20,000 nt of DNA from Rhizaria sp. SCN 62-66 (taxonomy: Eukaryota). Position numbers and translations under genes: made by a program. The notes under the pieces were generated by a model. It worked only from the letters and a program-made list of their open reading frames with translations. It had not been told where the DNA came from and did not search any database. Position 1 is the stretch's first letter; the number at the start of each line of letters is the position of its first letter. Of the stretch, positions 1-20,000 are shown piece by piece. The stretch covers positions 113,245 to 133,244 of the forward strand of contig MEDY01000079.1 of assembly GCA_001724265.1 (NCBI GenBank), given 5' to 3'.

Positions 1-2033
1 TGTGCGCGGAAGAAAGGCGTGAGCACGGCGGCTTGGTACCAGCGCTCGAGCAGCTCGGCGGTCGGGTTCCCAAAAAAGCCGCCCACGTCGGCGCCGGCGA
101 AAGAGATGCCGCCGACCGAGAGCGAGAGCAGCATCGCCGTCGTGTCGTGCAGGAATTCCCACGTGGCGAAGTTGTCGCCGGTCCAGATCGCGCCGACGCG
201 CTGCGTGCCCGCGAAGAGTGCGCGAGAGAGCACGAACGTGCGGTGCGTGGGGATCGCGGCTCCGGGCACGGGCGAGACCGACACCGCGCCCGCGGGCGCC
301 CAGTCGGGCAGCACCGTGGTGGGCGGCGTCACAACGGCGGCCTGGCGCGCGGCGAGCCCGTCCTTGTTGGCCATGTGGTAGTAGAGCCCGTAGACGTTAT
401 GCACGTCGCGGTGCTCGGCCGCGCCACCGAAGTGCAGCACGTCCTTGGGCATCGTCACCTCGGGCCCGCTGAACACGGAGGGCTCGTTCATGTCGTTCCA
501 CACGTGCAGCGTGGCGCTGCTGCCCGGGTAGCGGTCCAGCGCGTAGTTCGCCGCCCACTCGCTGCGGACCTCGGCGCGCGCGAAGTCGGGGTACACGGAC
601 CGGCCGGCCCAGCAGTCGCCCTCGTAGACGTCGCCGCCGGCCACGCGCGTGAGCAGGTCCTTGTCGCGCAGCTGGCGGTACACGCCGTAGTTGTCGTCCT
701 TCTTGACGTGCGGGTCAATGATGGTGACGAGGTGGCGGCCGTGCTGCGCCAGCTCGGCCTGCATCGCCACCGGGTCCGGGAACAGCTTGTCGTCCCACGT
801 GAAGTACCGCTTGCCGTCCGTGTGCTCGATGTCGAGCCAGAGAATGTCGTACGGGATGTCGTGCGCCTCGAAGCCGGCGTTGACAGCCAGCACGTCCTCG
901 TGCGACTTGTAGTTCCAGCGGCATTGGTGGTACGCCATCGCGAACCGCGGCGGCAGCGCGGGCAGACCGGTAAGCTTGTGATACTGCGCGGCGAGCGCGG
1001 CGGGCGAGGCCGTGGCGAAGAGGAACAAGTCCATCACACCCGTCTCGGCCACCCAGTGCGTCGCCTCACCAGAGCTCTTAGCTGCGGGCGCCATGACGTC
1101 GACCCACATCTCTGACGGGTTCATGAAAAACGCGCCCGCGGTGAGCGGCCGGCGCGTCGCGCCCTCGCCAACGAGCCCGTGCGCGACGGCCAGCGGCACG
1201 GCGCCGTAGAGCGCCATCGGCGAGTCGAGCTTGTGCTCGAACACATCGAGGTTGAAGAGGCGGTACGGCTCGGTGTACTTGGCGCCGTCGCCGCGCGTGC
1301 GCTTGAGCGCGAGCGACGTCGCGTGCTCGGGCAGACCGTAGAGCGCGTCCGCAGCCGGAAACGTCACGTCGAGCGACACGGCCGTGGGGCCCGAGCGCTT
1401 CTTGTCGGTGTGGCCGTCGAAGCGCTCGCTCCACATCTCTTCGGCGTCGCTGGGTAGGCGCTCGCGACGCTGCTCGAAGCCCAGGAGCTGCTCGCCGTTA
1501 ACCACGGCCGCAACGACGCCGCCCGACGTAAGCTCCACGCGGAACGGCGCAAAGTGCACTGTGGCGCAGAGCTGTTGCTGTGCGTCGCAGAGCGTGGCGC
1601 TGGCGGCGTCGGTCTTGGTCGTGACGCCCTCGGCCAGGTCTAGCGCGGTCGGGATCAGCACGTCGCCCAGCGGGACCTCCCAGCGCTTGCCCTTGGCGGC
1701 CACCACGGCATCGCCCTCCTCAGCGCGCAGGCGCACGACGCCCGCGGCAAGGAACGTCAGCGAGGCCTTGAGCGGCGCTACAAACGTCTCGGGCGACTCG
1801 CCCTCGTTGACGAGCTCGAACGTCACGCCCGAAGCAGTCTGCATCACAGCGCTACCCTTAACGGTGTAGTTACTCGGCGCGCGCTCGCGGTTGCGCTTGC
1901 AGTAGGCCGTCTGCTGGCACGTGCGGAACTTCTTCTCGTCGACTGCGGCGGAGAAACCGAGCAGCATGCTGCAGACGAGAACGAAGAGCGCCAGCCGGCG
2001 GGCGCCCATCATCGGTGCGATCTTCAGGGGCAT
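1..2033 (-). CDS. GANAB: ER glucosidase II alpha subunit (GH31 neutral alpha-glucosidase AB), 3'-partial, continues beyond position 1
   Basis: Manual minus-strand translation from ATG 2033 (alternative in-frame ATGs at 2012 and 2009): MPLKIAPMMGARRLALFVLVCSMLLGFSAA (signal peptide-like), then VDEKKFRTCQQTAYCKRNR, matching the typical glucosidase II alpha N-terminus. Also the GH31 nucleophile motif HVWNDMNEPSVFSGPEVTMPKD (~441-506), the acid/base motif GAIWTGDN (~171-194) and GADVGGFFGNP...RWYQ...PFFRAH at the window edge. Absent from the ORF track because the frame has no stop inside the window. Confidence 0.95.
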   Translation of the reverse strand, partial: MPLKIAPMMGARRLALFVLVCSMLLGFSAAVDEKKFRTCQQTAYCKRNRERAPSNYTVKGSAVMQTASGVTFELVNEGESPETFVAPLKASLTFLAAGVVRLRAEEGDAVVAAKGKRWEVPLGDVLIPTALDLAEGVTTKTDAASATLCDAQQQLCATVHFAPFRVELTSGGVVAAVVNGEQLLGFEQRRERLPSDAEEMWSERFDGHTDKKRSGPTAVSLDVTFPAADALYGLPEHATSLALKRTRGDGAKYTEPYRLFNLDVFEHKLDSPMALYGAVPLAVAHGLVGEGATRRPLTAGAFFMNPSEMWVDVMAPAAKSSGEATHWVAETGVMDLFLFATASPAALAAQYHKLTGLPALPPRFAMAYHQCRWNYKSHEDVLAVNAGFEAHDIPYDILWLDIEHTDGKRYFTWDDKLFPDPVAMQAELAQHGRHLVTIIDPHVKKDDNYGVYRQLRDKDLLTRVAGGDVYEGDCWAGRSVYPDFARAEVRSEWAANYALDRYPGSSATLHVWNDMNEPSVFSGPEVTMPKDVLHFGGAAEHRDVHNVYGLYYHMANKDGLAARQAAVVTPPTTVLPDWAPAGAVSVSPVPGAAIPTHRTFVLSRALFAGTQRVGAIWTGDNFATWEFLHDTTAMLLSLSVGGISFAGADVGGFFGNPTAELLERWYQAAVLTPFFRA

Positions 2034-2897: not shown

Positions 2898-5800
2898 ATG
2901 TGGTCCGCCCTCCGTAGCCTCCTGTGGAGCCGGCTCGTGCTGCGCAAGAGGAACTGGGTCACCAGCGTCCTCGAACTCGTCGTCCCTATGCTAGCCTTCG
3001 TCGTCATCTTGTACCCGTTCGCCGTTGACGTGTCGTCCCCGCTGGAGCGCGCGATCATCCCCACGGAGCCCATCGACCGCCTAGTGTACCAACAGCGCAG
3101 CGTCCTGTCGGTGTTTGTGGAGCCCGAGGCGTTCGCCAAGCCGCTCGCCACGTACCTCAAGGCCTTCAACATCACGCTGCTCGACGCGCCCAGCCGGAGC
3201 GGCTACCTTATCACGCTCGACGTCACTGGCAACAGCGGCTGGACCGCCATCAAGCACCCCGATGCCGACGTCCTCGGCCCGACGAGCACCAACGCCCGCG
3301 CCAGCGCACACGCCGATCCCATCCGCGCCGCCTTCGCCGCGCGCGCCGTGCGGGCCTCGCGCCACCGCGCATTGGCACTGCGCAAGTCGACGGCGACTGC
3401 GACCGCTGCGACCGCTGCGACCGGTGCAGCCGGTCGCAGCAATGCGGTTCGTCGCGGCAGCACCGTGCCTCGCGGTGACCTGGCGCCGCGCGACGACGAC
3501 GCCGAGGACGACAGCGGCAGCAGCGACAGCGGCGGCAGTGACGGCGACAGCGACAGCGAGAGCGACAGCGGCAGCGGCAGTGGTGACGAGAGCGACAGCG
3601 GCAGCGGGGGCGGCAGCGGCGGCGACGACGACGACGACGGCGATGCGGCCGAGAAGGAGGTCGAAGAGTTCCCGTGGCGCCCCACGTACGCGTACTCGGT
3701 GCGTCCGCAGGCGCGCTCGCCGCTGCTCTTCTCGTGGTGGAACGAGCCCTCGTCGCTCTTCTCCATCTTCCCGCGCACGTACATGGACGCCGACGCGTGC
3801 TCAGCGTTCCTGGACTGCGGCAAGGACGCGCGCGGGCCCGGCGTCGAGACGCCCGACGCGGCCGCGCGCGGACTCGTCATGTTGCAGCACCTCGTCAACT
3901 CGTTTGTGCTCGAGCTCCAGGGCGCGACCGCGCGCGGGCCGTCGTCCACCGCGGCGCCGGCGGTAAAGCTGAGCAAAGACCAGAAGCTTTCGTTCGTGCC
4001 CATGGCGCGCGCCGCGGGCACCGTGCTGCCGTCGACGGCGGGCGAGACTTCTCTGCTAGCCGCCGTCGCCGTCTTTGTCGCCGTGCTCTGTCTGGCGTCG
4101 ATGCGGCTCAGCGCGGACCTGTTCAAGTTCCGCCACTCGCGCGGCTTCGACGCGCTGCGCCTCATGGGCACTGGCCCCGGCCTCGTGTGGTTCGCGACGG
4201 CGGCCGTCGCGCTCGTCGTAGTTCTGGGCTCGTCGTTGCTGCTTGCGCTCGCCGCCACGGCGCGCGTGTTCCCGCGCACGTCGCTGCTGCACGCCTGGGT
4301 CATGTTTCTCGCCATGTGCAGCGCAATCACTGCCTACCTCGCCTGCGGGTCGGTCCTCGCGCAGCGCTCCAGTCTGCGCCTGCTCGTCGGCGTGCTGGTC
4401 AACGCCGTGCTCGTCGCCGCCGTGGGCATCTACAACGCGACCACGCCGACCGCGCGGCTGTTCGAGAACGTGCCTGACACCGTCACGGCCATGCTGGCCG
4501 TGCTGTGGCCGTCCATGGCCGCCGTGCAGATGCTGTCCGCGCTCGTCCGCCTCGAGGGCTCCGGCGTGGGGCTTATCCTCGAGGCGATCAACACCAACAC
4601 GCTCGGCGTGTCTTACCTCGTCTACGTGCCCTGCTCTTTCTTCGCCGCGTGGATGTACATCGTGCTGGGCGTGTACTGCGACAACGTCTACACGCTCGAC
4701 CGCAGCATCGCACTGTCGTGGTTCTTCTGCCTCTCGCCCTCGTACTGGTGCGGCACGCGCAACAACCGCGCGTCGGGCGTCATCACCAGTCTCTTCGTGG
4801 ACCGCAACTCGCACGCCATGGTCGGATATCTCGAGGCCGGTGATGACGACGGCGCCCGCTCCCGCGGCGGCGCCCCGCTCAGCGCCATCGACGACGTCAA
4901 CCTTGCCACCGGGCCCGGCGCTCCGCAACAGAGCGCAGGCGGTACAGGTGCAGACGCAGGCGCAGCGGCGGCGGCGGCGCAGGCGGCGAGCCGGGTGGAG
5001 CCCGCGCCGCCCGCGCCCGCGGTGCCCGGCTCCAGCGGCGGGCGCCCGTCGACGACGGCGGCGACGGCATTCGTGCAGGTCTCCCAGCTGACGTACGTGC
5101 CGCCGACGCGCCAGTCTGCGGCGCCCGTGCTGGCGCTGTCCGAAGTGAGCGCCGACTTCTACCACGGGCAGATCACGGCCGTGGTCGGCGACAGCGGCGC
5201 GGGCAAGACGACGCTGCTCAACGCCGTGGCCGCGCGCATTATGCCGACGAGCGGCAGCGTGCGAGTGATGGGCACGTCGACGCAGGCCGACGCCGAGAGC
5301 GTGCGTGCGACCGTGGGCATCTGCCCGCCCTGGAGCGCGCTCGACCCCGAGCTCACCGTCGAGCAGACGCTCGTGCTCTTCGGCGGCATCAAGGGCATCT
5401 CGCGCTGGGAGCTGGGCGGCGCGATCGAGTTCATCCTGCAGCTGTACGCGCCCGCGGCCGGCGGCGCGCCCGCGGACACGGCGCTGCTGCGCGCGACGCC
5501 CGTGCGCGCTCTGCGCCACTCGCAGCGCCAGCGCCTCGCAGTCGCCATCGCCCTGCTGGGCCCCGCGCAGGTGATCCTGCTGGACGAGCCCGCTGAGGGA
5601 CTCACGGCGCGCGACCGCGCCGGCATGTGGCAGCTGCTGCGCCGCGTCAAGGAGGACAAGACGGTGCTGGTGGCCACGCGCCATGTGTCGCAGGCGCTCG
5701 AGATCGCGGACCGCGTGCTGGTGCTCTCGCACGGCCAGCTCAGCGTGTGCGGCTCCCCGCGCTGGCTCGCCGCCAAGCTACACACCGGATACACCATCTC

Positions 5801-8800
5801 GCTCCGCTACGCCGCCCATAACGCCGCTGCTGCGATTGCTGCTGCTGTCAATGACACTGCCGAGACTGAGAGCAAGGCCGCCACCGCTATTGTTGCGGCG
5901 AGCTCGGCGGCGTCTGCGCAGGCGGACATGGCCGCGCTCGTGGCGCAGCTGCGCGAGAAGTTTCCTGACGTCATCGTCGAGCACGCGCCCGCACCTGCCA
6001 CTGCTTCCGCCGTTTCTGCCGCTGCTGACGCCGCCGCTGCACCCCCGGGCACTGCCGCCCAAGAGGAGTCTGCCTCGGCCTCGGCCCCAGCCTCGGCGAC
6101 GGGGTCGGCGACTGCGCTGGCGCGGCTGTACCTGCCGAGCGCGGCGGCGGGCGACCTTAACAGCCTGCTGGGCGCCGTTGAGGCCGCGGAGCCGCCCGTG
6201 GAGCTGGCGCTGGCGCACCGGTCGCTGCTGCAAGCGGTCCGCGAGACGGCTGCGCTCGTGCCCGTGGTCACCGACAAGCAGGTCCGCGAGGCGCGCCGCA
6301 AGATCCGCATCCGCTCGCTGCTGCTGCGCCGCTCGGAGCACAGCCGCAGCCGCAGCCGCAGCGAGGCGGCCGCGCGCAAGAAGCCCGGCAAGCCCGCGCG
6401 CGGCGCCCACGGCGTGCGCGGCGATGACAACGCCGACGGCGATGACGATGACGAGGCTGGTAGCGACGGCGCCGACCTCGACCTCGACTACGACTCGGTT
6501 GGTAACGGCGACGACTACGATGATGATGATGATGATGACGAGGTCGTGTTCCGCAGCGGCACCATCCTGCCAGACTCCGACGCCGTCTCCTCGTCATCTG
6601 CCTCCGCCGCTGCTGCCGGTGGTGCCGCTGTCCCCGCGCTGCCGGCGCTGCCCGCGCTGCCGGCGCTGCCCGCGCTGCCGGCGCTGCCCGCGCCGTCGAC
6701 GCTGTCGTGGCGCATCCCCGGCGCGCGCGCCGCGCCGCAGGCGTACGGGCACTTCGTCGAGGACGCGGGCGAGGCCAAGGTAGCCACGGCGTGCGCGTCG
6801 CCGCCCGCGCACGTGCGCGTGCTGCTGAGCAAACGCGTCAAGACGGGCTGGCGCCTGGCCCCGCCGGAGCACTTGCTGCTGCTGCTCGTAGGGATCGCCG
6901 TGTGCGTGGCCGCCGTGATCATGGGCACGGTGCGTTACCGCAACTTCACCACGCCCGGGCTGCCGCCGATGCCCAACTCGCTGGCCGAGTCTGTGGGGTC
7001 TGACCTGGTGACAGGCCGCTCGCCCGTGCTCGCCATGGGGCCCGCCAACTACCCCGTGTACACGGCCGTGGACTTCGTCGACTACGCCAACTCGACGGCC
7101 ACGCGCCCGCTCGTGCGCGGCTTCGCGCTGGGCGAGGAGATGGCCGACGCCGAGGCCGTCGCCGAGCCCGACGCGCTGGGCATGCAGCCTACGCGCGTGC
7201 TCTTCCCTGGCCCGCCCAGCGTGGATGGCATGCAGGACTACCTGCTCGTCAGCGGCGAGGACCGCCCGTTTGCGCACCAGCGCCTCTTCAGCTACGTCGT
7301 CAACAGCGCCGCGGCGTTCCCGGCGCACGAGCAGGAAGACGTCATCCAGACGCAGTTCGACGTCACAGTCTTTTTCAACACTTCGTCGGTGCTGTCGGTG
7401 CCCGCTGCGATCGAGTACTTCGACAACATGCTGCTCAAGGCGTCGCACGCGGCGCGGCTCGACTCGCGCGTGACGCTGCTGGGCGACGACGCCGCGGGCG
7501 CCGACTCGGTGCGCGACGTCGACACGCTGCTGCTGCTGCTTAAGGCGACCAAGGAGGGCGACACGGTGGCGATGAACCGCGCCGAGCTTGCGACCGTCGT
7601 GGACGCGACGGCGCCCGTGCTCATCGGGCTCGCCAACATCCGCTGGTCCGGCATGAACGTGCTGGGCAAGACGTGGCACCGCGAGCTGGCCTTCGTCCTG
7701 GGGCTGGGGCTCGTGCTGGGCGTGCTGACCAGCTTCACTGCAAACTGGCTCATCCGCGAACGCGTGTCGGGGCTCAAGGCACGCCAGTACCTCGGCTTCG
7801 GCGTCACGCCGCTGGCCTACTGGGCGCCAGTAGTCATGGTCGACGCCGCGTTCCTGGCCCTTGTCGTCGTGGTGAACCTCTTCCTGCAGACGCTGAGCTA
7901 CTGGACCGAGAACGCGGTCGGCGTGCTGGCCGTCGTGGGCGTCATCACCGGCACCTACCTGCGCAGCTTCATCTCGGCCGCGCCCATGGGCGGGCTGGGG
8001 TTCATCTTCCACGTTGCCGCCACCACGTGCTGGATGGCCATGTCCTTCTTCCTCGTTGACGTGGCCTGGATCGTGCTCGCCGCCGTCGTCGCCGCCGTCT
8101 TTGCCGTCGCCGCCGTCGTCTGCGAGCTCATCTCACCCTTCGACACCGTCTCCGCCAAGAACTGGTGCCCCTACTTCTGCGCCTCGTTCGAAGACACCAC
8201 GCGCAAGGCTTCCGGTCGCGTCGCCCGCGTCATCGCCGGCGGCGAGGCTTCCCCTGCTCCCCTCGGCGCTCCCGGCGCTGGCTCTGGCGCTGTTGGCGCT
8301 GTGGAGATGACCGCGCTTGGCGAGTCCGCCGCCACCGCTGAGGTGTGGGTGGACCCGGCTGTGGCGGCCGAGCAGTCGCGTATCGAGCGCTCGCAGTGCG
8401 CGGACCCCGTGCGGTTCCCGCTCGTCGTGCGCGACGTACGCATGCGCTCGCGCCGCGGGCAGCCCGCCGCGCTGAACCACGTCTCGGTTGCCGTGCCGTC
8501 GGGCGAGATCCTCGTCGTCGTCGGCTCCGAGGGCTCGGGCAAGACCGCGCTCACCGAGGTGCTCAGCGGCCACACGTCGCCCAGTGGCGGTGAGGTCTAC
8601 GTGCGCGGACACGCGCTTAACACGGAGCTGCGCGCGCAAAACTCGTGCGTGTCGACCTACGGCAACAAAGACGTCGTCGTGCGCCACGTCGGCTCGCTGC
8701 TGCACAGGTCCACCGCGCGCCTAGGCGCGGCCGCCAACGCGTCCTTTGCGGCACGCTCCCCCGCGGCGGCGGCGCACCGCGACGGGCTGTTCGACGTGCT

Positions 8801-9572
8801 CACCGGCCGCGAACACGTCGTCATGATCGCGCGGCTGCGCGGCGCGCCCGCCAACGCCGAGACGTTCCTCTTCGCCGAGGAAGTGCTCGCGCACATGGGG
8901 CTGCTGGGCGTGGCTGACAGCAAGCTGGTCGACTGGTCGCCCGCGTCGCGGCGCCGCCTTGCGCTTGCGCTCGCGCTGGTAGGCGACCCCGACGTGCTGG
9001 TGCTGGACCAGCCCACGCGCGACATGGACGCAGACACCCGCCGCTTCATCTGGCAGCAGGTGTTGCTTAACCACGGCAGCGGGAGCGGCGGCGCCGAGGA
9101 GCGCTCGACGGTGCTGACCACGGACTCGGTCGAGGAGGCCGCGCTCGTCGGTGACCGGATTGCGCTCATGCACGGCGGCAAGATCCGCGCGCTGGGCACG
9201 CCCGCGCGGCTGGCCAAGCTCGCCGCCGCGCTGCTGTGCCTCACGCTGCGGGTCAAACCGGGCACGAGCGCGCAGGCCGTGCGCTGGGTCAAGACCGCGT
9301 TCCCGGGCGCGAGCGTGATTGAGGACGGATCGGACGCGAGTCTCTCGCCGCGGCTCGTCTTTACGATCCCCAAGCGCGCCGACGGGCTGTACACGCCCGT
9401 GCTGGACGCGCTCGAGGCCAAGCTCGCCAAGCCAGGCGCCGGGACCGACGCGTTCATCGTCATCTTCACGCTCTGCGACGCCACGCTCGAGACGCTACTT
9501 ATGCGCGTTAACACAAGCACCGATGAGGACAACGCCGCGGCCGCCGCAGATGACTTTGACGACGACGCGTGA
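2898..9572 (+). CDS. ABCA-subfamily full ABC transporter (TMD-NBD-TMD-NBD), ~2224 aa, degenerate ATPase motifs, no obvious introns
   Basis: First ATG at 2898 gives MWSALRSLLWSRLVLRKRNW...ELVVP, resembling the ABCA N-terminal LLWKN..RKR motif plus TM1. Large extracytoplasmic loops follow TM1 of each half. Other ABCA hallmarks: WFFCLSPSYW, IRERVSGLK..QYL.GVTPLAYW, DPAVAAEQSRI, LTGREHV. Walker A motifs GDSGAGKTT (5187-5213) and GSEGSGKTA (8523-8549); Walker B motifs ILLDEP and VLVLDQP. Ends in TGA. Confidence 0.92.
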   Translation: MWSALRSLLWSRLVLRKRNWVTSVLELVVPMLAFVVILYPFAVDVSSPLERAIIPTEPIDRLVYQQRSVLSVFVEPEAFAKPLATYLKAFNITLLDAPSRSGYLITLDVTGNSGWTAIKHPDADVLGPTSTNARASAHADPIRAAFAARAVRASRHRALALRKSTATATAATAATGAAGRSNAVRRGSTVPRGDLAPRDDDAEDDSGSSDSGGSDGDSDSESDSGSGSGDESDSGSGGGSGGDDDDDGDAAEKEVEEFPWRPTYAYSVRPQARSPLLFSWWNEPSSLFSIFPRTYMDADACSAFLDCGKDARGPGVETPDAAARGLVMLQHLVNSFVLELQGATARGPSSTAAPAVKLSKDQKLSFVPMARAAGTVLPSTAGETSLLAAVAVFVAVLCLASMRLSADLFKFRHSRGFDALRLMGTGPGLVWFATAAVALVVVLGSSLLLALAATARVFPRTSLLHAWVMFLAMCSAITAYLACGSVLAQRSSLRLLVGVLVNAVLVAAVGIYNATTPTARLFENVPDTVTAMLAVLWPSMAAVQMLSALVRLEGSGVGLILEAINTNTLGVSYLVYVPCSFFAAWMYIVLGVYCDNVYTLDRSIALSWFFCLSPSYWCGTRNNRASGVITSLFVDRNSHAMVGYLEAGDDDGARSRGGAPLSAIDDVNLATGPGAPQQSAGGTGADAGAAAAAAQAASRVEPAPPAPAVPGSSGGRPSTTAATAFVQVSQLTYVPPTRQSAAPVLALSEVSADFYHGQITAVVGDSGAGKTTLLNAVAARIMPTSGSVRVMGTSTQADAESVRATVGICPPWSALDPELTVEQTLVLFGGIKGISRWELGGAIEFILQLYAPAAGGAPADTALLRATPVRALRHSQRQRLAVAIALLGPAQVILLDEPAEGLTARDRAGMWQLLRRVKEDKTVLVATRHVSQALEIADRVLVLSHGQLSVCGSPRWLAAKLHTGYTISLRYAAHNAAAAIAAAVNDTAETESKAATAIVAASSAASAQADMAALVAQLREKFPDVIVEHAPAPATASAVSAAADAAAAPPGTAAQEESASASAPASATGSATALARLYLPSAAAGDLNSLLGAVEAAEPPVELALAHRSLLQAVRETAALVPVVTDKQVREARRKIRIRSLLLRRSEHSRSRSRSEAAARKKPGKPARGAHGVRGDDNADGDDDDEAGSDGADLDLDYDSVGNGDDYDDDDDDDEVVFRSGTILPDSDAVSSSSASAAAAGGAAVPALPALPALPALPALPALPAPSTLSWRIPGARAAPQAYGHFVEDAGEAKVATACASPPAHVRVLLSKRVKTGWRLAPPEHLLLLLVGIAVCVAAVIMGTVRYRNFTTPGLPPMPNSLAESVGSDLVTGRSPVLAMGPANYPVYTAVDFVDYANSTATRPLVRGFALGEEMADAEAVAEPDALGMQPTRVLFPGPPSVDGMQDYLLVSGEDRPFAHQRLFSYVVNSAAAFPAHEQEDVIQTQFDVTVFFNTSSVLSVPAAIEYFDNMLLKASHAARLDSRVTLLGDDAAGADSVRDVDTLLLLLKATKEGDTVAMNRAELATVVDATAPVLIGLANIRWSGMNVLGKTWHRELAFVLGLGLVLGVLTSFTANWLIRERVSGLKARQYLGFGVTPLAYWAPVVMVDAAFLALVVVVNLFLQTLSYWTENAVGVLAVVGVITGTYLRSFISAAPMGGLGFIFHVAATTCWMAMSFFLVDVAWIVLAAVVAAVFAVAAVVCELISPFDTVSAKNWCPYFCASFEDTTRKASGRVARVIAGGEASPAPLGAPGAGSGAVGAVEMTALGESAATAEVWVDPAVAAEQSRIERSQCADPVRFPLVVRDVRMRSRRGQPAALNHVSVAVPSGEILVVVGSEGSGKTALTEVLSGHTSPSGGEVYVRGHALNTELRAQNSCVSTYGNKDVVVRHVGSLLHRSTARLGAAANASFAARSPAAAAHRDGLFDVLTGREHVVMIARLRGAPANAETFLFAEEVLAHMGLLGVADSKLVDWSPASRRRLALALALVGDPDVLVLDQPTRDMDADTRRFIWQQVLLNHGSGSGGAEERSTVLTTDSVEEAALVGDRIALMHGGKIRALGTPARLAKLAAALLCLTLRVKPGTSAQAVRWVKTAFPGASVIEDGSDASLSPRLVFTIPKRADGLYTPVLDALEAKLAKPGAGTDAFIVIFTLCDATLETLLMRVNTSTDEDNAAAAADDFDDDA
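6633..6686 (+). repeat. Coding tandem repeat: 3 perfect copies of CCCGCGCTGCCGGCGCTG encoding (PAL)6 in the ABCA inter-half linker
   Basis: Read directly: units at 6633-6650, 6651-6668 and 6669-6686. Confidence 0.95.
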
Positions 9573-10323: not shown

Positions 10324-13300
10324 ATGCCTGCTAAAGCACGACGACCTGCGTCAACGAGCAGCCAGTCGTCGCAAGCCACCTCTGGTCCTCCAGAGAGTCG
10401 CCAATTGCAACTCAACCTTCCGCGAATGTCGAGTATTGGTACATTAAGTGTGTCGCCTAACTTAGCGGTGACCAACGCCAACAATACCATTTCCGACGTG
10501 ATTGATATCAGTGACGACTCCAGCTCAGTCAGCACCACGACAACAGCTGCCCCTGATGTGGAGACGATGGATGTCATCAGGCAGTCCACGCAGACTACCA
10601 ACGCTGCGGACGCGATCGAAAAGCCCGCTCCATTGACTCGCACACTAGGTGGCGTCGGCCTGAACCAGTTTGGCGTCTTCAAGCTCGCCAGCAAGACCCC
10701 CGCGGCCACGGCTCCAGCAGCTGCGGCCCCTGCACACGGCCCGCAGCTCCCGCCCGCGCGTTCCGTGTCCACCGCACGCCCGCCGCCGGCGCCCGCCGTG
10801 GCGTCTGCCGCCGTGTTGCCGGCCGCGATTCCCGCTCAGGTGCGCCAGGCGTCGGTGCCGGCCTTCACCGTCGAGCCGGTCTCGGCCAGCGCACTGCGCG
10901 TCTCCGCCAGCTCGCTGCGCGCCGCGGCCGCCGCTGTCACGCCGCGGCGCTCGCCGCGCGCCGCGCTGGGTGACCCGCTCGACGGCGGCAGCGCCCTCAG
11001 CCTCATGTCTGCGCTACCGCCGCCGCCACCACCGCCGCCGCAGGCGCCCGTGGTGCTGGCTGCGCCGGCGCCGCTGCACCGCGAGGCGTCGGCGGTCGGC
11101 GGCCGCTACGGGCTCAAGCGCGCCAACGCGTACACCCTCGGCGATTCCATCAGCTCTGCAACAAGCGCCGCTACAGGCGCAGGCGCCGCTACAGGCGCAG
11201 GCGCCGCTGCGGCGCGCTTGCGGCGCGCGGGCAGCGTCCTGCCATTCGACGGCACCGCTCAGCAGCAGTCCCGCTCGGCGGTCTCGTGGGGGGAAGCCGG
11301 CGACGGCGGCGGCGCTGGTGGTGGCGATATAGCGGCGACGCAGCGCGACGTGTTAGCGACGCAGCGCGATGTGGTGGCGACACAACGCGACGGGCTGCGG
11401 CTGCTGGTCACGCAGTCGGGCGTTGCGGTCTCACAGCAGCACGGCGGCGGCGGCGGTGGCGGGTTCGGACTGCACTCGGTGTCGCAGTGGGACGGCGCGT
11501 GCACGCCGTCTGACCAGCCCGTGCGCGCGCGCAGCGACTTTGAGGTCGCCGAGGAGCTCCACAACCAGCGCGAGGTGCGGCTCGCCACCGCCGCCGCCGT
11601 GCAGCCGCCGGGTCTGCGCGCGCTCCGCGGCCCGCCCGTGCCGCCGCAGCGCGGCCGGCTTACCAGCGGCGTGTCGGCGCTGCGCCGCTTCGACCTCGAC
11701 TCGAGTGACAGCGCGCCCGCAGCGTCTGCGCCTGCGTTCGGCAACGCGGGCCTGCCGCCGCGTGCGCCGCTTAAGACCGCGGCGGCTCCGGCGGCTGCGG
11801 CCGGAGCGGGGCGCGGGCTACTGAGCCAAACCGTGACGTCGATTGACCCTTTTGGGCTCGGTACACAGGGAACTCAGGCTACGCAGAGCGGTGCGGGTGA
11901 TGACGCGGACAACGGCGGCGCGGGCAGCGGCCGCCGCAGCAGCAAGCGGAGCCGGCGCGCGTCGGACGGCCCGCCCGTGCCCGCGCTGCCCACGCTCACG
12001 TTCGGCGACGACGGCGACGGGGACGACGACGCCGCAGTGGAGGGCGATGTTGCGCTTACGCCGTTTGTGCCGCCCCTTTCGGGCGAGACGGCGGCGCACG
12101 ACGACGCGCTCGGGGCCCAGACGGCCCAGATGACCCAGATAGCCCGCGACGCGCGCAAGGACAGCCCTGTGATGTACGCCAGCTCGGGACGCTCGGGCCG
12201 CCCCAGGCCCAGGTCCTCGACGAGCGCCGGCGCTAGTGCCGGTGCGGGTCCCTCCGCGCTACTGGCGCCGAGCGCGCGCGCCGCGACGGCGGCCCGGCAG
12301 TGGACAACGAACCCGTTCGTGCAGTGCGTGGAGGCCTCGGCAGAGCTTGCGGCGCTGGTCGCGGCCCAGGTCCGCGCCGCGCTTGGCTCCGGGCTCGACT
12401 GGGAGCTCCCGCGTGGCGGCGCGGCGCGGACTCTTGTCGCACCGTCGGACCGCCTCAAGGCGTTGCTTGCATCCACGGTGACGAGCTTCAACCTTGAATC
12501 AGTCCCGCTTATTTCCTCCGTCTACGAGACCATTAACAATGACCGCGCAAAAGGTTTGTGCACTTGACTGACATGTTGATCATTTTTTTACTCTGTTCAT
12601 TGATTTCTCCTATATTTGTCTTAACTCACGCCGTCATGTGTATCATCTCTATCGTTTTCATTTACCTCTTGTGTTATAGGTCACTTCGGTGAAATTTTCA
12701 AAGTCATTGACAAGCGCAACGGTTGTCCTTTCGCCGTCAAGCGTCTGCGGCGCGCTGTGACGCAGCTGTCGCAGTACGAACGCGTGATCCAGGAGCCGCA
12801 GGTCTTGGCGCTGCTGCACCTGCCGCTGCGGCCACTGTGGTTGCCATCGCGCTGGAACCCGCACAGTCTGGCGCTGCTGCCGCAATGCGCGTCGTGGGGC
12901 GCGATCCGAGCCCTGGCGCTGGCGTTGGCGCTGAGCGGGTCTGCTGTGTGCGAGAGCACGGCGCGCGCCGACGCGCTGCGCTCGCTGCTGCCCGAGACGG
13001 ACGTTTTTGCGAGGCTCGCGCCAGCTGCGGACGACGACGCGGCGCACCTGCGCACCTCGCTCGGCGGCGACGGCGCCGACGCCGGCCGTGACGCCGGCCG
13101 CGATTCCGGTCGCCGCGCGGCTCCCAGCCCCGCTGTTGCGCAGCTCCTCCCCAGTCTGAGCGCCGACGCGCGCGTGGCCGCGCCCGCGCAGAGCGTGCTC
13201 GTGCCGGGACCGACCTGGGTGTCGGAGCGCATTGTCCACGTCGCCTTTGAGTGGTGCGCGGGCGGCTCACTGGCGGCGCGGCTGCGCGAGTTCCAGCAGA

Positions 13301-15064
13301 CGTCCGCAGCGGCGGCTGTATCCCCCGCGTCGTCGCCACGCGCGCCGTTTATGTGCCCATTCACGACGCTGAACGCACTGCACTCGCTGGCGGCCGCGCT
13401 GACGCGCTGTCACGACCGCGGCATCGCGCATCTTGACGTGAAGCCGGACAACGTGTTGTTGGCGCGCACCGACGCGTCTGGCGCCCCCAGTGTGCGTGGG
13501 CTGAAGCTCGGCGACTTTGGTCTTGCTCGCCCGTTCGACCTCTTCGACCCGGCTCGCGTGCACAGCGGCGAGAAGAAGCCCCTGCACGCCTGGCTCTCAA
13601 GTGCAATTGGTCTCGAGCGGGCGATTGAGAGTGCAGTCTCCCACGCGTTTACGCACCGCGCGCGCATGCTGCCGACGTCCGACGCCGGGCTCGCGGCAGC
13701 GATTGCAGTTCCGGCGCAGGACGCGCCGCAGTGGTCCGACATCGAGGGCGACAAGTGCTACCTCTCCGCCGAAAGCATCGATCCCAGGGTGTGGAAGCTT
13801 CAACGACCCGGGGTGGCACTGCCGCTTGACAAGATTGACATGTTCGCCCTCGGGGCCTCTGCTCTTGAGCTCCACACCGGGCTGCCGCTGCCTGCTGAGG
13901 GCCCCGCGTTTGAGGCTCTGCGCAACTCGCTCTCCGCCGTGAACCTTCCCGATATCTCGACGGCGAGTGACAGTACGCAGGGTTCGTTGCTGCCGAAGAT
14001 GATGCGTCCTGATACTCAAACTGCCTCACTCAGTCCGTTTACTGACGATGTTGCGCGGCTTCAACGCTGCGTTTGCTGCGTTGACGCCACGCCAGCGTTG
14101 GGGACGAGCCCAATGGCGTGTGAACTTTGTGTCGTTTCGCGACAAATCGTTGCCTCAGCGGCTCGGCGCAGTGGCCACAGCTTTGATGTTGAATCCACCA
14201 AGGCTCTCTCGCAGGCGGTTGCGCGTGCCCTAACCCCTGGTCTTACACTAATTTGCCGTTCCTTAATTACATCTCTTATGAGCCGCACAATCTTGGAGAG
14301 GTTCGTACTTATCTGTTGCTATTCTTGATCACTCCTGTTTCGACAAATCACATCGCAATATATAAGTTCGTGGCCATCGTTTTGCTCATTATGAACTGGA
14401 TGGACTTGCTTTCAATTTTTTTAGGCCATCTGCTCCTGTTGTTGTTGAGCTTATTGAAAACACGCTTAGTCGCGCAACAGGTTCTGTGGAAGCAGAGCTG
14501 TTGGCAGTTTTACAAGACACATCACTCCGCCTCCGGCTTGCTTCTTCCGCAGGCATCACACTGTCATTGAGTGTGATCGGTCCACGTCTGGAACGTGCGG
14601 GCTCACACCAACTCGCGAGTATGCTTCTAACCGCGCGGACTGAGTCACTGTTGTCACAAAACTCGACATCGCCAACACAGCCTGTAGCGATGACACAAAT
14701 CCTCCCTCTCGCCGCTGTGAAGAAACAAGCAGCACAAACTCCCGTTGTTGGCCGCCCAGGGCGCGGTGCTGGGAAAATTGGTGCACAAAGCCAAGACCAG
14801 AGCTCACCAACTTTGTCTACGCCATCGAGGCGGGAGCAGCTCAACGGCGAGGTTGAAAGCCTCATTGAGAGTCGCGACAACTTGCTCAGCGAAGTCGAGC
14901 GGCTGCGTGCCGACGTGCTCGTGTGGCAAAATCTGCGTGACTCGCACCAAACAACCACAAACACCGCTTCAGCGCCGCGCGAGCGTTCCTATCTCGGCTT
15001 CACACAAAGCCAGTCGAACACGCAAGAGTCACAAGAGTACAACGCTGGTAGCACATACTGGTAA
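10324..15064 (+). CDS. WEE1: Wee1/Myt1-family CDK-inhibitory kinase; join(10324..12553,12680..14300,14425..15064), ~1496 aa
   Basis: Splicing the two GT-AG introns joins three ORF-track entries in frame (4491 nt). The joins rebuild the Gly loop (AKG|HFGEIFKV..KRNGCPFAVKR) and subdomain XI (ER|PSA). Wee1-type motifs: EWCAGGSL, HLDVKPDN, KLGDFGLA, EGDKCYLSAE, KIDMFALG, LPAEGPAFEALRN. Long low-complexity N-terminus and a coiled-coil-like C-terminal heptad segment (LNGEVESLIESRDNLLSEVERLRAD). Confidence 0.9.
11329..11391 (+). repeat. Degenerate 21-nt coding repeat x3 (IAATQRD-VLATQRD-VVATQRD) in the Wee1 N-terminus
   Basis: Read directly from the DNA and its translation. Confidence 0.9.
12554..12679 (+). 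other. Spliceosomal intron 1 of the Wee1-like gene (126 nt, phase 1)
   Basis: AAG|GTTTGT donor, AT/pyrimidine-rich body, TTATAG|G acceptor. Removal creates the Gly codon of the kinase Gly-rich loop and restores the frame. Confidence 0.92.
14301..14424 (+). other. Spliceosomal intron 2 of the Wee1-like gene (124 nt, phase 2)
   Basis: GAG|GTTCGT donor, T-tract plus TAG|G acceptor. Removal creates the invariant kinase subdomain XI Arg (RPSA) and joins the 14486..15064 ORF in frame. Confidence 0.9.
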
Positions 15065-16137: not shown

Positions 16138-17763
16138 CTATCGTCGACGTAACATATCTTCAGCTGTTTCCACGTGTGTTGTCGGTATGAGCGCCATCCT
16201 TTCGAGCAGTGCGCGCAGTTGCCAAAGCTCGTGCAGTGCTGGGCTATCCTGAGTCATACAGTCGGTAAAACGGAGAAGGTCGATTGCCTGCAGTCCACGT
16301 GCTTTTAAAAACGCCGCGGCAAAGGCATTATGAGGCGTCATCCCCTCGGTCATCACAGTAGCATCAGGATCCGTGTCGCCAATGGCGATGAGCTGTCGCA
16401 ACACACGCAGAAGTGTCGCGGCTGTGTCGCAATCGAATCCGCTCGCATCAATGTGTGTGCCATCATCGTTGTCAACACCCAGATTTCTATCGCAAAGGGC
16501 CGCAGCCAGCAGTACGCGGGTGCAATATTCCAACCCGTCTCTTTCAAGTACCAGCTGTACAAGCTCTGGATCATAATCCGTGTCTTTTAAGAGCGCATCG
16601 AGCAAGCGTGTCACCTCGCGGGCAAGACCGGAAACAGCAGAAAATGTGCCCTCAAACACAGAGTCGGCAACTTTGAGACGCGACAGAATCTGAGAGAGAA
16701 AGTCCTCTTGAAGCAACCGCGCTGCTCCACCTGGCACGGCGGCCGCCACACGCGCCATCACCGCGACGAAGAGCGTCTGCACCCGGCCGCCGCTGACCGC
16801 TTCGCTGCCGATCGCGCCGCACAGAGCGGACAGACGCGCCGGTGTAAAAATGCGCGCGAGCATCTCGTCGCTCAGAGAGACGGCGCGGCGCAGCAGAAGC
16901 AGTCGTGAAGTCATTGCAGGACAGTCGCGCTGGGCAGCTGCGAGGTCGCCGTAAGTCACACAGTCGAACGTGTCGCTGAGGGCGAACTCTTCGAAGTCGG
17001 CACAAGAATCGCTGTCCTCAATATCAACACTGAACACGCCCGCAGTAGCGCGAAGAGTGTGCGCACGAACCAAGCCTCGAAATGAAGTCGCAGCTTCACC
17101 AAGACCCCAGCTATGCTTGAGCATGGCGAAGAGCGAGGGAGTGAGAATAGATACGGCGGGGTACAACAAAGATGAACCAGGACTTGTGCAAAGCATAAAA
17201 ACCGCATTGCAACACTTGGTATACATCACAATGTCTGTGATAGAGTTACTCTCTGTCTCCTGTGCCAGCCGGATACGCGGCATCAGATCCTGGTGCAAGT
17301 AAGCGCTGAGATAGGTCAGGGAAGAATTCTTGGCTGCCAAAGAGAGCAAAGCAAGGGTTGAGTACCTTGAGCACAGTCGGGCGGTTGTACACATCACATT
17401 GTGTGCCAGTATAGTTGTTGACCCCGTTAAAAGTGAGCATAACCCTTCGAAAGCGCCTCCCGTGGCAAGCATGGAGCAGCCTTGGTTCGAGGCAGAGATA
17501 CTACCAAAGATGGCGACGATGGAGTCACGCCGGATCTCAGCAGCCAAATCTCCGGTGAGGGTCAACGTCCGCGTCAAGAAATCAACCGTTTCAACCATCA
17601 CGGGCATCCCTGGATTATTGTGCTCGTTAAAATAGCTATCAATGACCGATTGAAACCTGTTGACGGTGGTAACGCTTGGGGACAGAGACATGACATCGGC
17701 CAGAGCCGTCGCAAATGCGTTCATCACATGCGGTGTTGCATTCGCATGTGCACCAAGACTCAT
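16138..17763 (-). CDS. Divergent ARM-repeat (importin-alpha-like) protein, copy 1, ~541 aa to the TAG
   Basis: Long helical amphipathic ORF; most likely ATG at 17763 (MSLGAHANA...), where composition shifts from AT-rich. The C-terminal LLRVLRQLIAIGDTD...NAFAAAFLKARGLQAIDLL resembles the importin-alpha terminal repeat pattern (LE.LENIL.VGE...N.YA..I.E.GGLEKIE.LQ). No basic IBB domain is visible. Confidence 0.65.
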   Translation of the reverse strand: MSLGAHANATPHVMNAFATALADVMSLSPSVTTVNRFQSVIDSYFNEHNNPGMPVMVETVDFLTRTLTLTGDLAAEIRRDSIVAIFGSISASNQGCSMLATGGAFEGLCSLLTGSTTILAHNVMCTTARLCSRYSTLALLSLAAKNSSLTYLSAYLHQDLMPRIRLAQETESNSITDIVMYTKCCNAVFMLCTSPGSSLLYPAVSILTPSLFAMLKHSWGLGEAATSFRGLVRAHTLRATAGVFSVDIEDSDSCADFEEFALSDTFDCVTYGDLAAAQRDCPAMTSRLLLLRRAVSLSDEMLARIFTPARLSALCGAIGSEAVSGGRVQTLFVAVMARVAAAVPGGAARLLQEDFLSQILSRLKVADSVFEGTFSAVSGLAREVTRLLDALLKDTDYDPELVQLVLERDGLEYCTRVLLAAALCDRNLGVDNDDGTHIDASGFDCDTAATLLRVLRQLIAIGDTDPDATVMTEGMTPHNAFAAAFLKARGLQAIDLLRFTDCMTQDSPALHELWQLRALLERMALIPTTHVETAEDMLRRR

Positions 17764-18382
17764 TTTAAAATTATCTTGCGCCACAAAAGCTATCCCCGTC
17801 CAGATGAGCTTGTTGGAGTTCTTGAAACGTGCAATCGTATCAACACGTTGTGAGTGAGGGTACAACAAAGAGAAATAGCAATCACGAAATGTACCTTCGA
17901 CAAAAAGAGCGTATATTTCGATGTTGATCATATATATTCGTGCGAAAGCTGTTATATGCGTGCGGTCTTCATTGACGTTCGTAAAACAGAGGTATCTCGT
18001 TAAGAACGAGGAGTTGGAAGAGAGAAAGAGCATCTTGCAATCCACCACAAATAGAAATCTAACCGCACAAACATGTTCATCTTGCTTTAATGAGCGGGAA
18101 ATGAATCGACCACCAGATAAAATTGCGTAATTTGTATGAAAGTACTTGTAAATAATGCGTGCATGATTATATTCCGCTTATATCCTCATTTCTCTCATAA
18201 TATTGTCAAGTTGTTGAAGAGACCGGCAAAAAAGCGTTGCAGCGCAGTATTAAGGTAACTTGCCACAATAACAATAGTATCTGCAAGACTCAGTCGTTGC
18301 ATTAAAACCGTTCTTAAAGTATTGACGCAGCGATCTGTACACGATCGAATACAAAAAGGCATGACGAAGGTCAGTTCGTTAG

Positions 18383-19186
18383 TCACTCTGATCTAAACCC
18401 ATCGCCCACTTGGTATCCGTCGTACTCATCCGCGATGTCCTCTCCGCTCAAGCGTGCCTCGAGTGCAGCGGCGTCGGTAACATCGCCGACAATAACGTCC
18501 ACAAGCTGGCGCAGTGCCACAGCCAAATCCCTCGTGTCGACAGGCACTGCTTCGTCCTGAAGCAGCTTTAAAAGCGCGTTGTGACCGCCATCCGCAAAGA
18601 AGGACGACAAAAACACGTTCCGGGGCTCGGTGACTTCGGTCAGCACCGTGGGGTCACCGTCTGTATCGCCAGTCGAAATCATGATCCGCAAATTATGAAG
18701 CAGATGATAATAAAGTGGCTGCGAGGTTGTGAATTGAGCAGCAGCTACCAGAGACCATGTGCAGTAGCGAAACGCGCCGCATTTATGCAGCTTCCGCGCC
18801 ACAGCCCCCTGGGTTGTGTTGACTTGGGCTGTCACGGTCAGCGCGTTGTGTAGCGCCCACAGCATGTCGCACGCTAGCGTCCACAGACCGAGCTTGCTAT
18901 CGTCGTCAACGCCGCCGCTCAGCGCGGGCGGCACAGGCACGACCGGGACTAACGCCTGGAGCGCGCCCGCGGCCAGAATGCGCGCCACCATCGTGGGTCC
19001 ATCGGCCATCAGGTCCGACAGCAGCCATAGTAGCGTCTGATTGTATCGGCATCGCGCGGTCCCAGTGCCGCAGCCAGCCGGCAGCCGGCGCAGGTGCACC
19101 AACGTGGGCGCCGTGAAGACCTGCGTGGGCATTTCAGGGTCGAGCGCGACAATCTCGCGAAGGAAAGTCAGCAAATGCGCACGCCT
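18383..19186 (-). CDS. Divergent ARM-repeat (importin-alpha-like) protein, copy 2; 5' end unresolved (terminal exon, truncated gene or pseudogene)
   Basis: Colinear with the C-terminal half of copy 1 (GAFRYCTWSLVAAA / GLEYCTRVLLAAA; ISTGDTDGDPTVLTEVTEPRNVF / IAIGDTDPDATVMTEGMTPHNAF). ARM H3-like motifs LWLLSDL and LWALHNAL; acidic tail. Open from just after the TAG at 19189-19187; first ATG at 19132; ends in TGA. Confidence 0.65.
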   Translation of the reverse strand, partial: RRAHLLTFLREIVALDPEMPTQVFTAPTLVHLRRLPAGCGTGTARCRYNQTLLWLLSDLMADGPTMVARILAAGALQALVPVVPVPPALSGGVDDDSKLGLWTLACDMLWALHNALTVTAQVNTTQGAVARKLHKCGAFRYCTWSLVAAAQFTTSQPLYYHLLHNLRIMISTGDTDGDPTVLTEVTEPRNVFLSSFFADGGHNALLKLLQDEAVPVDTRDLAVALRQLVDVIVGDVTDAAALEARLSGEDIADEYDGYQVGDGFRSE

Positions 19187-19506: not shown

Positions 19507-19927
19507 CAATTAGCATAATCCAATTGACTGTATTCTCGTTGATCTCACGGTCATATAATGTACGCTGACTCCGTTCACTGCAGTGTCCGCTGGTGCAGCA
19601 ATTCAGGTATTGAAACAACGGGCATCTAGTTATAAGTAAAATCCATTAGTGGTGTCAATATAATCATCATACACAAGAGCTACCGCGCTTTTGGCAGTAA
19701 TCTATAGAGAATCTCACATAGGTGGGATGCCTTAAGATTCAAATGCAAAAACACGCGCACGAGCTGAAATAACGCTTCAGCTCGCCCTCCCTTAGTAAGT
19801 ACTGAGTGTTGTGACACCGGGGGTGTGGAGGTACGAAGACAAAGTTGATAAAGTGCAATGCTTTAACGTCGAATGGAAGAGAAGAAAAGAATAAAACGGA
19901 ACAACAGAACAACAGCAGCAACAACAA

Positions 19928-19935
19928 ACACACAC

Positions 19936-20000
<65 letters not shown>
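19928..20000. repeat. (AC)n/(GT)n microsatellite running to the window end
   Basis: ~36 dinucleotide units with one A>G interruption at 19940, preceded by a degenerate (AAC/CAG) stretch. Confidence 0.98.

Follow-up and report, generated by a model that had tools for sequence, protein, structure and literature searches.

An ABCA-type transporter gene with both ATPase sites degenerate: a candidate pseudo-pump and possible passive lipid conduit

In this study, which was based on a window of 20,000 nucleotides (the whole stretch of DNA that was analysed), we asked what an ABCA transporter may still do when both of its ATPase sites are degenerate, as an earlier note had claimed for the gene that is called P0001 here. 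The gene is a single uninterrupted ORF of 2224 codons (window 2898..9572, plus strand, as are all of its features given below) on contig C79 (MEDY01000079.1) of a 34.9 Mb eukaryotic assembly. The sequencing runs that contain its DNA are labelled as bioreactor, wastewater and activated-sludge metagenomes.

The surroundings of the gene can be described briefly. On one side, a long ORF (3-2033, minus strand, continuing in L050 8839-9801; GC3 0.91) encodes a GH31 glycosidase whose N-terminus is hydrophobic and which we take to resemble glucosidase II alpha; it is divergent from the ABCA gene across a gap of about 860 bp. On the other side (10324-14328, plus strand), a long low-complexity ORF is followed by kinase-like exons with a Pkinase match and large Ala/Pro-rich insertions; the EGD motif past the DFG may indicate a Wee1/Myt1-like kinase. 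Two further ORFs on the minus strand (16138-18033 and 18383-19132) had no Pfam matches; they resemble importin-alpha/armadillo-repeat proteins and one another, have a lower GC (GC3 0.56 in the first) and are possibly diverged tandem paralogues. The window closes with a CA microsatellite (19926-20000), where the contig also ends. Elsewhere in the genome, the ubiquitin genes (L041, L044 and L045 on C3, C168 and C182 of G000) are monomers with an extra Met-Ser at the start; where the end was read, three more residues follow the di-Gly, and a pattern search for a polyubiquitin junction found none. The extra Met-Ser, together with the Paulinella match given below, hints weakly at Cercozoa.

On its architecture and the kinship of its nucleotide-binding domains (NBDs), P0001 classifies as an ABCA protein. 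Pfam finds two ABC_tran domains, and the order is TMD-NBD-TMD-NBD with approximately 12 TM helices, a count that comes from a hydropathy scan in which 14 hydrophobic windows were interpreted as 12 TM helices plus an exocytoplasmic helix, with TM10-12 assigned by inference from the alignment. Its closest solved relatives are ABCA7, ABCA1, ABCA3 and ABCA4 (PDB 8edw, 7tbw, 7w01 and 7lkp), and its NBDs are nearest to ABCA NBDs in both sequence and fold. By hydropathy, large exoplasmic domains of about 330 aa and 250 aa separate the first two hydrophobic segments of each half, which is a criterion for ABCA proteins (PMC3378599, partial text). TM1 and the ABCA N-terminal motif (2952..3038) align to residues 4-40 of ABCA1/ABCA7, and the first exoplasmic domain contains an acidic Asp/Ser/Gly low-complexity tract (3492..3660). 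TM2-TM6 (4032..4673; hydropathy and alignment) are colinear with the canonical ABCA TMD1, exocytoplasmic helices included. Such helices in both TMDs are a feature of ABCA structures. TMD2, which is composed of TM7 (6855..6938; hydropathy) and TM8-TM12 (7683..8144; hydropathy and alignment, with the individual helices inferred), is about 60 aa below the canonical length in the alignment and apparently has no exocytoplasmic helices between TM11 and TM12. It finds only itself in the host genome, which makes the gene single copy by TMD2. Neither TMD matches Pfam PF12698 (ABC2_membrane_3) at E 0.01, or at E 0.001 in the genome scan, the support for them being alignment colinearity. The cytosolic linker (6325..6692, approximate limits) consists of a basic Arg/Ser-rich run, an acidic Asp run and (Pro-Ala-Leu) repeats, and a C-terminal regulatory (R2) domain (9210..9510, approximate limits) is folded in the model according to AlphaFold and Foldseek.

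The motifs of NBD1 were assigned by direct reading and by alignment to ABCA1/ABCA7 and to family alignments. The Walker A motif GDSGAGKT (5187..5210) keeps its Gly and Lys (Lys770), with Asn replaced by Ser, and the Walker B and D-loop segment LLDEPAEGLT (5577..5606, LLDEP at 5577-5591) keeps Asp896 and Glu897 intact, with the D-loop Asp replaced by Thr903. Pro735 replaces the adenine-stacking aromatic of the A-loop (5100..5102), the Q-loop reads CPP with Gln replaced by Pro811 (5322..5330), the signature reads LRHSQ (5511..5525) and the H-loop reads ATRH (5673..5684); in the alignments, the switch-His column is occupied by Arg928 and not by His929. In NBD2, the Walker A motif GSEGSGKT (8523..8546) again keeps its Gly and Lys (Lys1882), with Asn replaced by Glu, and the A-loop aromatic is replaced by Ser1851 (8448..8450). 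The position of the Q-loop reads AAAHRD (8766..8783; alignment and model), where His1960 replaces Gln, and both candidate registers (His1936 or His1960) yield a His in the Gln column. The signature WSPAS (8934..8948) retains Ser2014 and has lost both Gly. The Walker B and D-loop segment LDQPTRDMD (9003..9029) retains Asp2037 and the D-loop Asp, with Glu replaced by Gln2038 (CAG, 9009-9011) and Gly by Asp2042, and the H-loop TTD (9117..9125) has Asp2076 (codon 9123-9125) in place of His. Ahead of this Q-loop lies an insertion of about 40 aa (8625..8753; in the model, residues 81-123 have a pLDDT below 50). The possibility that it is an intron was rejected, because the insertion is GC-rich and a contig of the polyA library (run X5) spans it ungapped. 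In the AlphaFold models, the ABC fold is kept with the insertion unstructured (mean pLDDT 89.6 for NBD1 and 75.2 for NBD2), and Foldseek gave ABCA7 as the best match of NBD2-R2 (E 1.8e-24); the NBD2 model was built on the input alignment and is not independent regarding the Q-loop and H-loop registers. All of the motifs and coordinates quoted in the earlier note proved exact when the sequence was re-read, and the possibility that the canonical residues are merely shifted was rejected, since the registers of the H-loops and Q-loops hold in the ABCA1/ABCA7 and family alignments. The losses extend beyond those listed there: the A-loop aromatics of both NBDs and the D-loop Asp of NBD1 are also missing, as apparently are the exocytoplasmic helices of TMD2.

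Assembled into composite sites, these residues leave neither site complete. Site 1 (Walker A/B, Q-loop and H-loop of NBD1 with the signature of NBD2) keeps Lys770, Asp896, Glu897 and Ser2014, but has Pro for Gln, Arg for His and WSPAS as its signature, whereas site 2 (the same elements of NBD2 with the signature of NBD1) keeps Lys1882 and Asp2037, but has Gln for Glu, Asp for His, His for Gln and LRHSQ. In the partial text of PMC7756269, the Walker B Glu is described as necessary for hydrolysis, the A-loop as stacking adenine and the D-loop as coupling the NBDs. Of the residues that would be expected of an active ATPase (the Lys of Walker A, the Asp-Glu pair of Walker B, the Gln of the Q-loop, the switch His and an xSGG signature from the partner), neither site has the full set. 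From the alignments and the predicted models, it can be shown that the NBDs keep the ABC fold and the P-loops and that the composite sites are without residues that hydrolysis and tight closure need, i.e., the fold is kept and the catalytic residues are gone, as in a pseudoenzyme. The human ABCA7, ABCA1, ABCA3 and ABCA4 share with P0001 the order TMD-NBD-R-TMD-NBD-R, the N-terminal and post-TM6 motifs and the NBD fold, but they have two consensus sites, whereas P0001 has none and additionally carries low-complexity insertions and a shortened TMD2. The contrast with asymmetric ABC proteins drawn in the earlier note also holds. The one-site-degenerate proteins (CFTR, SUR, MRP, TAP, ABCB11 and some human ABCAs) have similar substitutions in the Walker B Glu, the H-loop and the NBD2 signature (PMC7756269, partial text), but in them the degenerate site is NBS1 and a consensus site remains, while P0001 has losses in both sites, the more severe ones in site 2. 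Judging from these motifs, it is very probable that P0001 does not work as a normal coupled pump.

The other ABCA proteins put this finding into perspective. Besides P0001, the host genome has seven full-length ABCA genes, in all of which the NBD1 motifs are canonical; their NBD2 is canonical as far as it was read (fully in two, to the D-loop in three and interrupted by introns in two). Four canonical ABCAs of the genome (L011, L016, L017 and L021 on C352, C13, C370 and C44) are a recently expanded clade with long insertions inside NBD1, one of which sits where NBD2 of P0001 has its own. Two further PF12698 loci proved not to be additional degenerate ABCAs: the one on C61 encodes an ABCG of the PDR type, and the one on C530 (L049 258-3056, minus strand) a half-size ABCA whose H-loop is normal. 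At its C-terminus, the latter is extended by a TM segment and then by a long domain that looks hydrolase-like, a possible ABCA fusion whose extra domain may, by eye, be pectin-acetylesterase-like. Homology searches yielded 176 two-NBD ABCA proteins, the query included, of which four were skipped for alignment gaps and 172 classified. Both sites were canonical in 151 and minor changes were present in 10, while the Glu/His pair was lost at site 1 only in seven, at site 2 only in none and at both in four; because the sample comprises the top matches to P0001, no family-wide frequency can be obtained from it. The four are P0001, P0172 and a pair of isoforms from a single tick gene (P0008/P0009; P0008 is Ornithodoros turicata XP_064455465.1), and P0172 has in NBD1 the same E>Q and H>D pair that P0001 has in NBD2. 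Among the skipped proteins, P0262 (Choristoneura fumiferana XP_073953263.1), which comes from a moth, has no switch His in either NBD, and neither has the moth protein P0363; both P0262 and P0008 are named 'ABCA3-like'. The doubly degenerate state thus recurs, since the full-length tick, moth and P0172 proteins have also lost the switch His at both sites. Like P0001, they have degenerate signatures and keep their P-loops, but the substitutions are different, the identity in the searches is at most 36% and their labels are only ABCA3-like or none.

The suggestion of the earlier note that the protein may be non-hydrolysing can be retained only in part. The catalytic residues are gone from both sites, but site 1 still holds its Lys, Asp, Glu and the partner Ser, and residual hydrolysis is possible because of these residues and because ABCA4 with a single E>Q change retains 21-44% of its basal ATPase (about 44% in E2096Q). 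The same mutants lose substrate stimulation, the double mutant is dead and the authors conclude that transport requires both sites (PMC11405800, partial text). An inverted asymmetric pump, in which site 1, with Arg928 standing in for His, would slowly hydrolyse ATP and drive transport beside a dead site 2, could be built on this, and the retention of the Walker B Glu in NBD1, and in at least one NBD of every other doubly degenerate protein, fits it, as does E2096Q. We nonetheless consider it unlikely: the Gln of the Q-loop, the switch His, the aromatic of the A-loop and the two signature Gly are missing from site 1 as well, the degenerate site of human ABC proteins is always NBS1, with NBS2 as the working one (PMC7756269, partial text), and the Glu/His pair was lost at site 2 alone in 0/172 proteins compared with 7/172 at site 1 alone.

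Which positions were lost and which were kept was analysed in 41 columns whose conservation in canonical NBDs reaches 90% or more. In P0001, 14/18 gamma-phosphate and dimer positions were changed, a figure that is partly circular because the gene was picked for those changes, compared with 0/10 for the P-loop Gly/Lys and Walker B Asp and 21/54 for the others. The contrast between the P-loop class and the other positions, which was not selected for, gave p=0.023; when the four doubly degenerate proteins were pooled, 1/40 against 66/214 were changed (p=5e-5), profile detection favouring NBDs with a P-loop. Because the P-loop is selectively kept, something would still require a phosphate-binding loop, and hydrolysis, adenine stacking and tight closure would be dispensable. 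This agrees with the proposal that the protein binds ATP; that proposal became less secure because neither NBD retains its A-loop aromatic (now Pro735 and Ser1851) or its Q-loop Gln.

The searches for an orthologous protein yielded none. They comprised a near-length search on NBD1 (best named ABCAs at 27-34% identity), a phmmer search of 1.84 billion representatives with aa 1300-2224 (best score 218.8 bits, identity no higher than 36% among the 150 matches listed, a Paulinella ABCA being second best), shorter-protein searches on NBD2 and on TMD1-NBD1 (8000 candidates scored each), a metagenome-contig search (two loci at 21%) and an exact look-up; the ESM Atlas returned generic ABCA clusters only. 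In an NBD tree from a quick, unfinished search (97 rows, taken from 42 of the 176 proteins above and from 13 NBDs of the host genome), the P0001 branches had lengths of 2.99 and 2.72 (median 0.49) and were placed among other long branches; no ancestry was drawn from it, because kinship cannot be separated from long-branch attraction. Such branches, the changes at 21/54 non-catalytic conserved positions and the missing orthologue are what a redundant paralogue under relaxed selection and heading for loss would show. We regard this as very unlikely, since the 2224-codon frame is open despite about 3 substitutions per site in the NBDs, whereas in a neutral simulation 0/500 copies remained stop-free at 5% divergence, and since GC3 is 0.90, with 0.86-0.94 in each full block of 200 codons, which resembles the GH31 gene next to it and differs from the intergenic GC of 0.44. 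The selective retention of the P-loop also argues against decay, as do the differences from a second gene copy. Run X4 contains diverged pieces with 34 differences over 5529-5767 and 42 over 7579-7801, which we infer to come from the orthologue in a sister lineage, because no database protein among the listed C-half matches exceeds 36% identity. Of the 231 variant rows, 40 were listed and five dropped (three in a repeat and two in Walker A, at which cross-matches from other organisms accumulate); 20 of the remaining 35 are at third positions and 18/30 changed codons are silent against 0.27 expected, although some rows perhaps come from unrelated genes. In the three clusters that are most clearly single diverged pieces, 12/18 codons are silent. 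On this partial variant table, outside which the degenerate motif codons of the sister copy lie, P0001 is under purifying selection, and the argument of the earlier note against a pseudogene is borne out. An assembly or sequencing artefact is most improbable. The best holder of P0001 DNA among the runs is a metagenome, which would suit an artefact, but zero-difference contigs from three other studies (runs X4/X5, X6 and X7) match the NBD1 motifs to the letter and cover part of NBD2, and more than a dozen separate substitutions lie within one open frame. In the contig comparison, which covered four runs and left aside those with small word shares (X8-X14), NBD2 8897-9126 is absent from the pieces listed and is supported by a word share of 0.93 in runs X2 and X3, perhaps one data set. 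The polyA run X5 contains both gene copies as contigs, and 8/8 listed pieces lie or start inside the ORF, which suggests that P0001 may be expressed, but the pieces may also be DNA because the run holds a 45-kb record.

The explanation that we put first, tentatively, is that P0001 is an ABCA-derived pseudo-pump that acts as a passive, nucleotide-modulated lipid conduit and is kept by purifying selection. Nucleotide would dock loosely in the P-loops with no splitting coupled to transport, the NBD pair could not be locked into the normal ATP sandwich and the 12-helix membrane core would shift between conformations without direction. Lipid, assumed from the family to be of the ABCA type, would flow downhill between leaflets or to an acceptor, beside seven or more canonical ABCA pumps in the same genome. 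The reasons for preferring the conduit are that the membrane core is retained in full, along with the P-loops, and that the change in the NBD1 D-loop matches a TAP mutant. TAP1 D674A showed passive, nucleotide-gated flux without hydrolysis, whereas the double D-loop mutant was inactive (PMC4242082, partial text), and Thr903 occupies the D-loop position at which Ala turns TAP into a hydrolysis-free facilitator. However, D674A is an engineered peptide exporter of another fold class whose working-site motifs are otherwise intact. The inactive double mutant speaks against a conduit, as does the loss of stimulated ATPase in ABCA4 E>Q, read as both sites being needed. Moreover, the NBD1 signature with its Arg and His may prevent any closure, nucleotide gating may be weak or absent because both A-loops are lost, and TMD2 is shortened, with neither TMD reaching PF12698.

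Several of these features would suit a close rival of the conduit, a hydrolysis-dead scaffold or receptor that would stay in one conformation, transport nothing, bind partners through its exoplasmic domains and cytosolic tracts and use the P-loop for folding or a structural nucleotide. The bulky signature residues, the loss of both A-loops and Q-loops, the shortened TMD2 and the acidic, Arg/Ser-rich and Pro-Ala-Leu tracts are consistent with it, and SUR1/2 are ABC proteins that turned into regulators (PMC7756269, partial text). The full TM set is kept, however, low-complexity insertions are widespread in the genome, including in canonical paralogues, and no partner is evident, the neighbours being the GH31 glycosidase and the kinase-like gene; we consider the scaffold slightly less likely than the conduit.

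The doubly degenerate P0001 is real and selected, and it is probably undescribed: in the literature searched, outside which most subscription papers and supplements (arthropod ABC inventories) lay, an ABCA with both sites dead was not described. In the partial texts available, the ABCA TMD-NBD core is described as conserved (PMC13161189), and the ABCA halves of Trichomonas pair a canonical with a degenerate signature (PMC3378599). More speculatively than the conduit itself, and by analogy, doubly dead ABCA pseudo-pumps may be a recurring, undescribed class, in which independent losses of the residues for hydrolysis and dimer locking from both sites, with the P-loops retained, would have led in protists, ticks and moths to a hydrolysis-independent lipid conduit gated by nucleotide level, a natural TAP D674A facilitator. 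Degenerate-site ABC proteins are thought to retain one working site, and an ABCA that naturally has none would reveal what the membrane core is able to do without hydrolysis. This is relevant to whether ABCA proteins pump lipids or move them by reshaping the bilayer, and to how pumps turn into channels or regulators. In a tick and in a forest-pest moth, both of which lend themselves to study more readily than this protist, the label 'phospholipid-transporting ATPase ABCA3-like' also conceals probable pseudo-ATPases.
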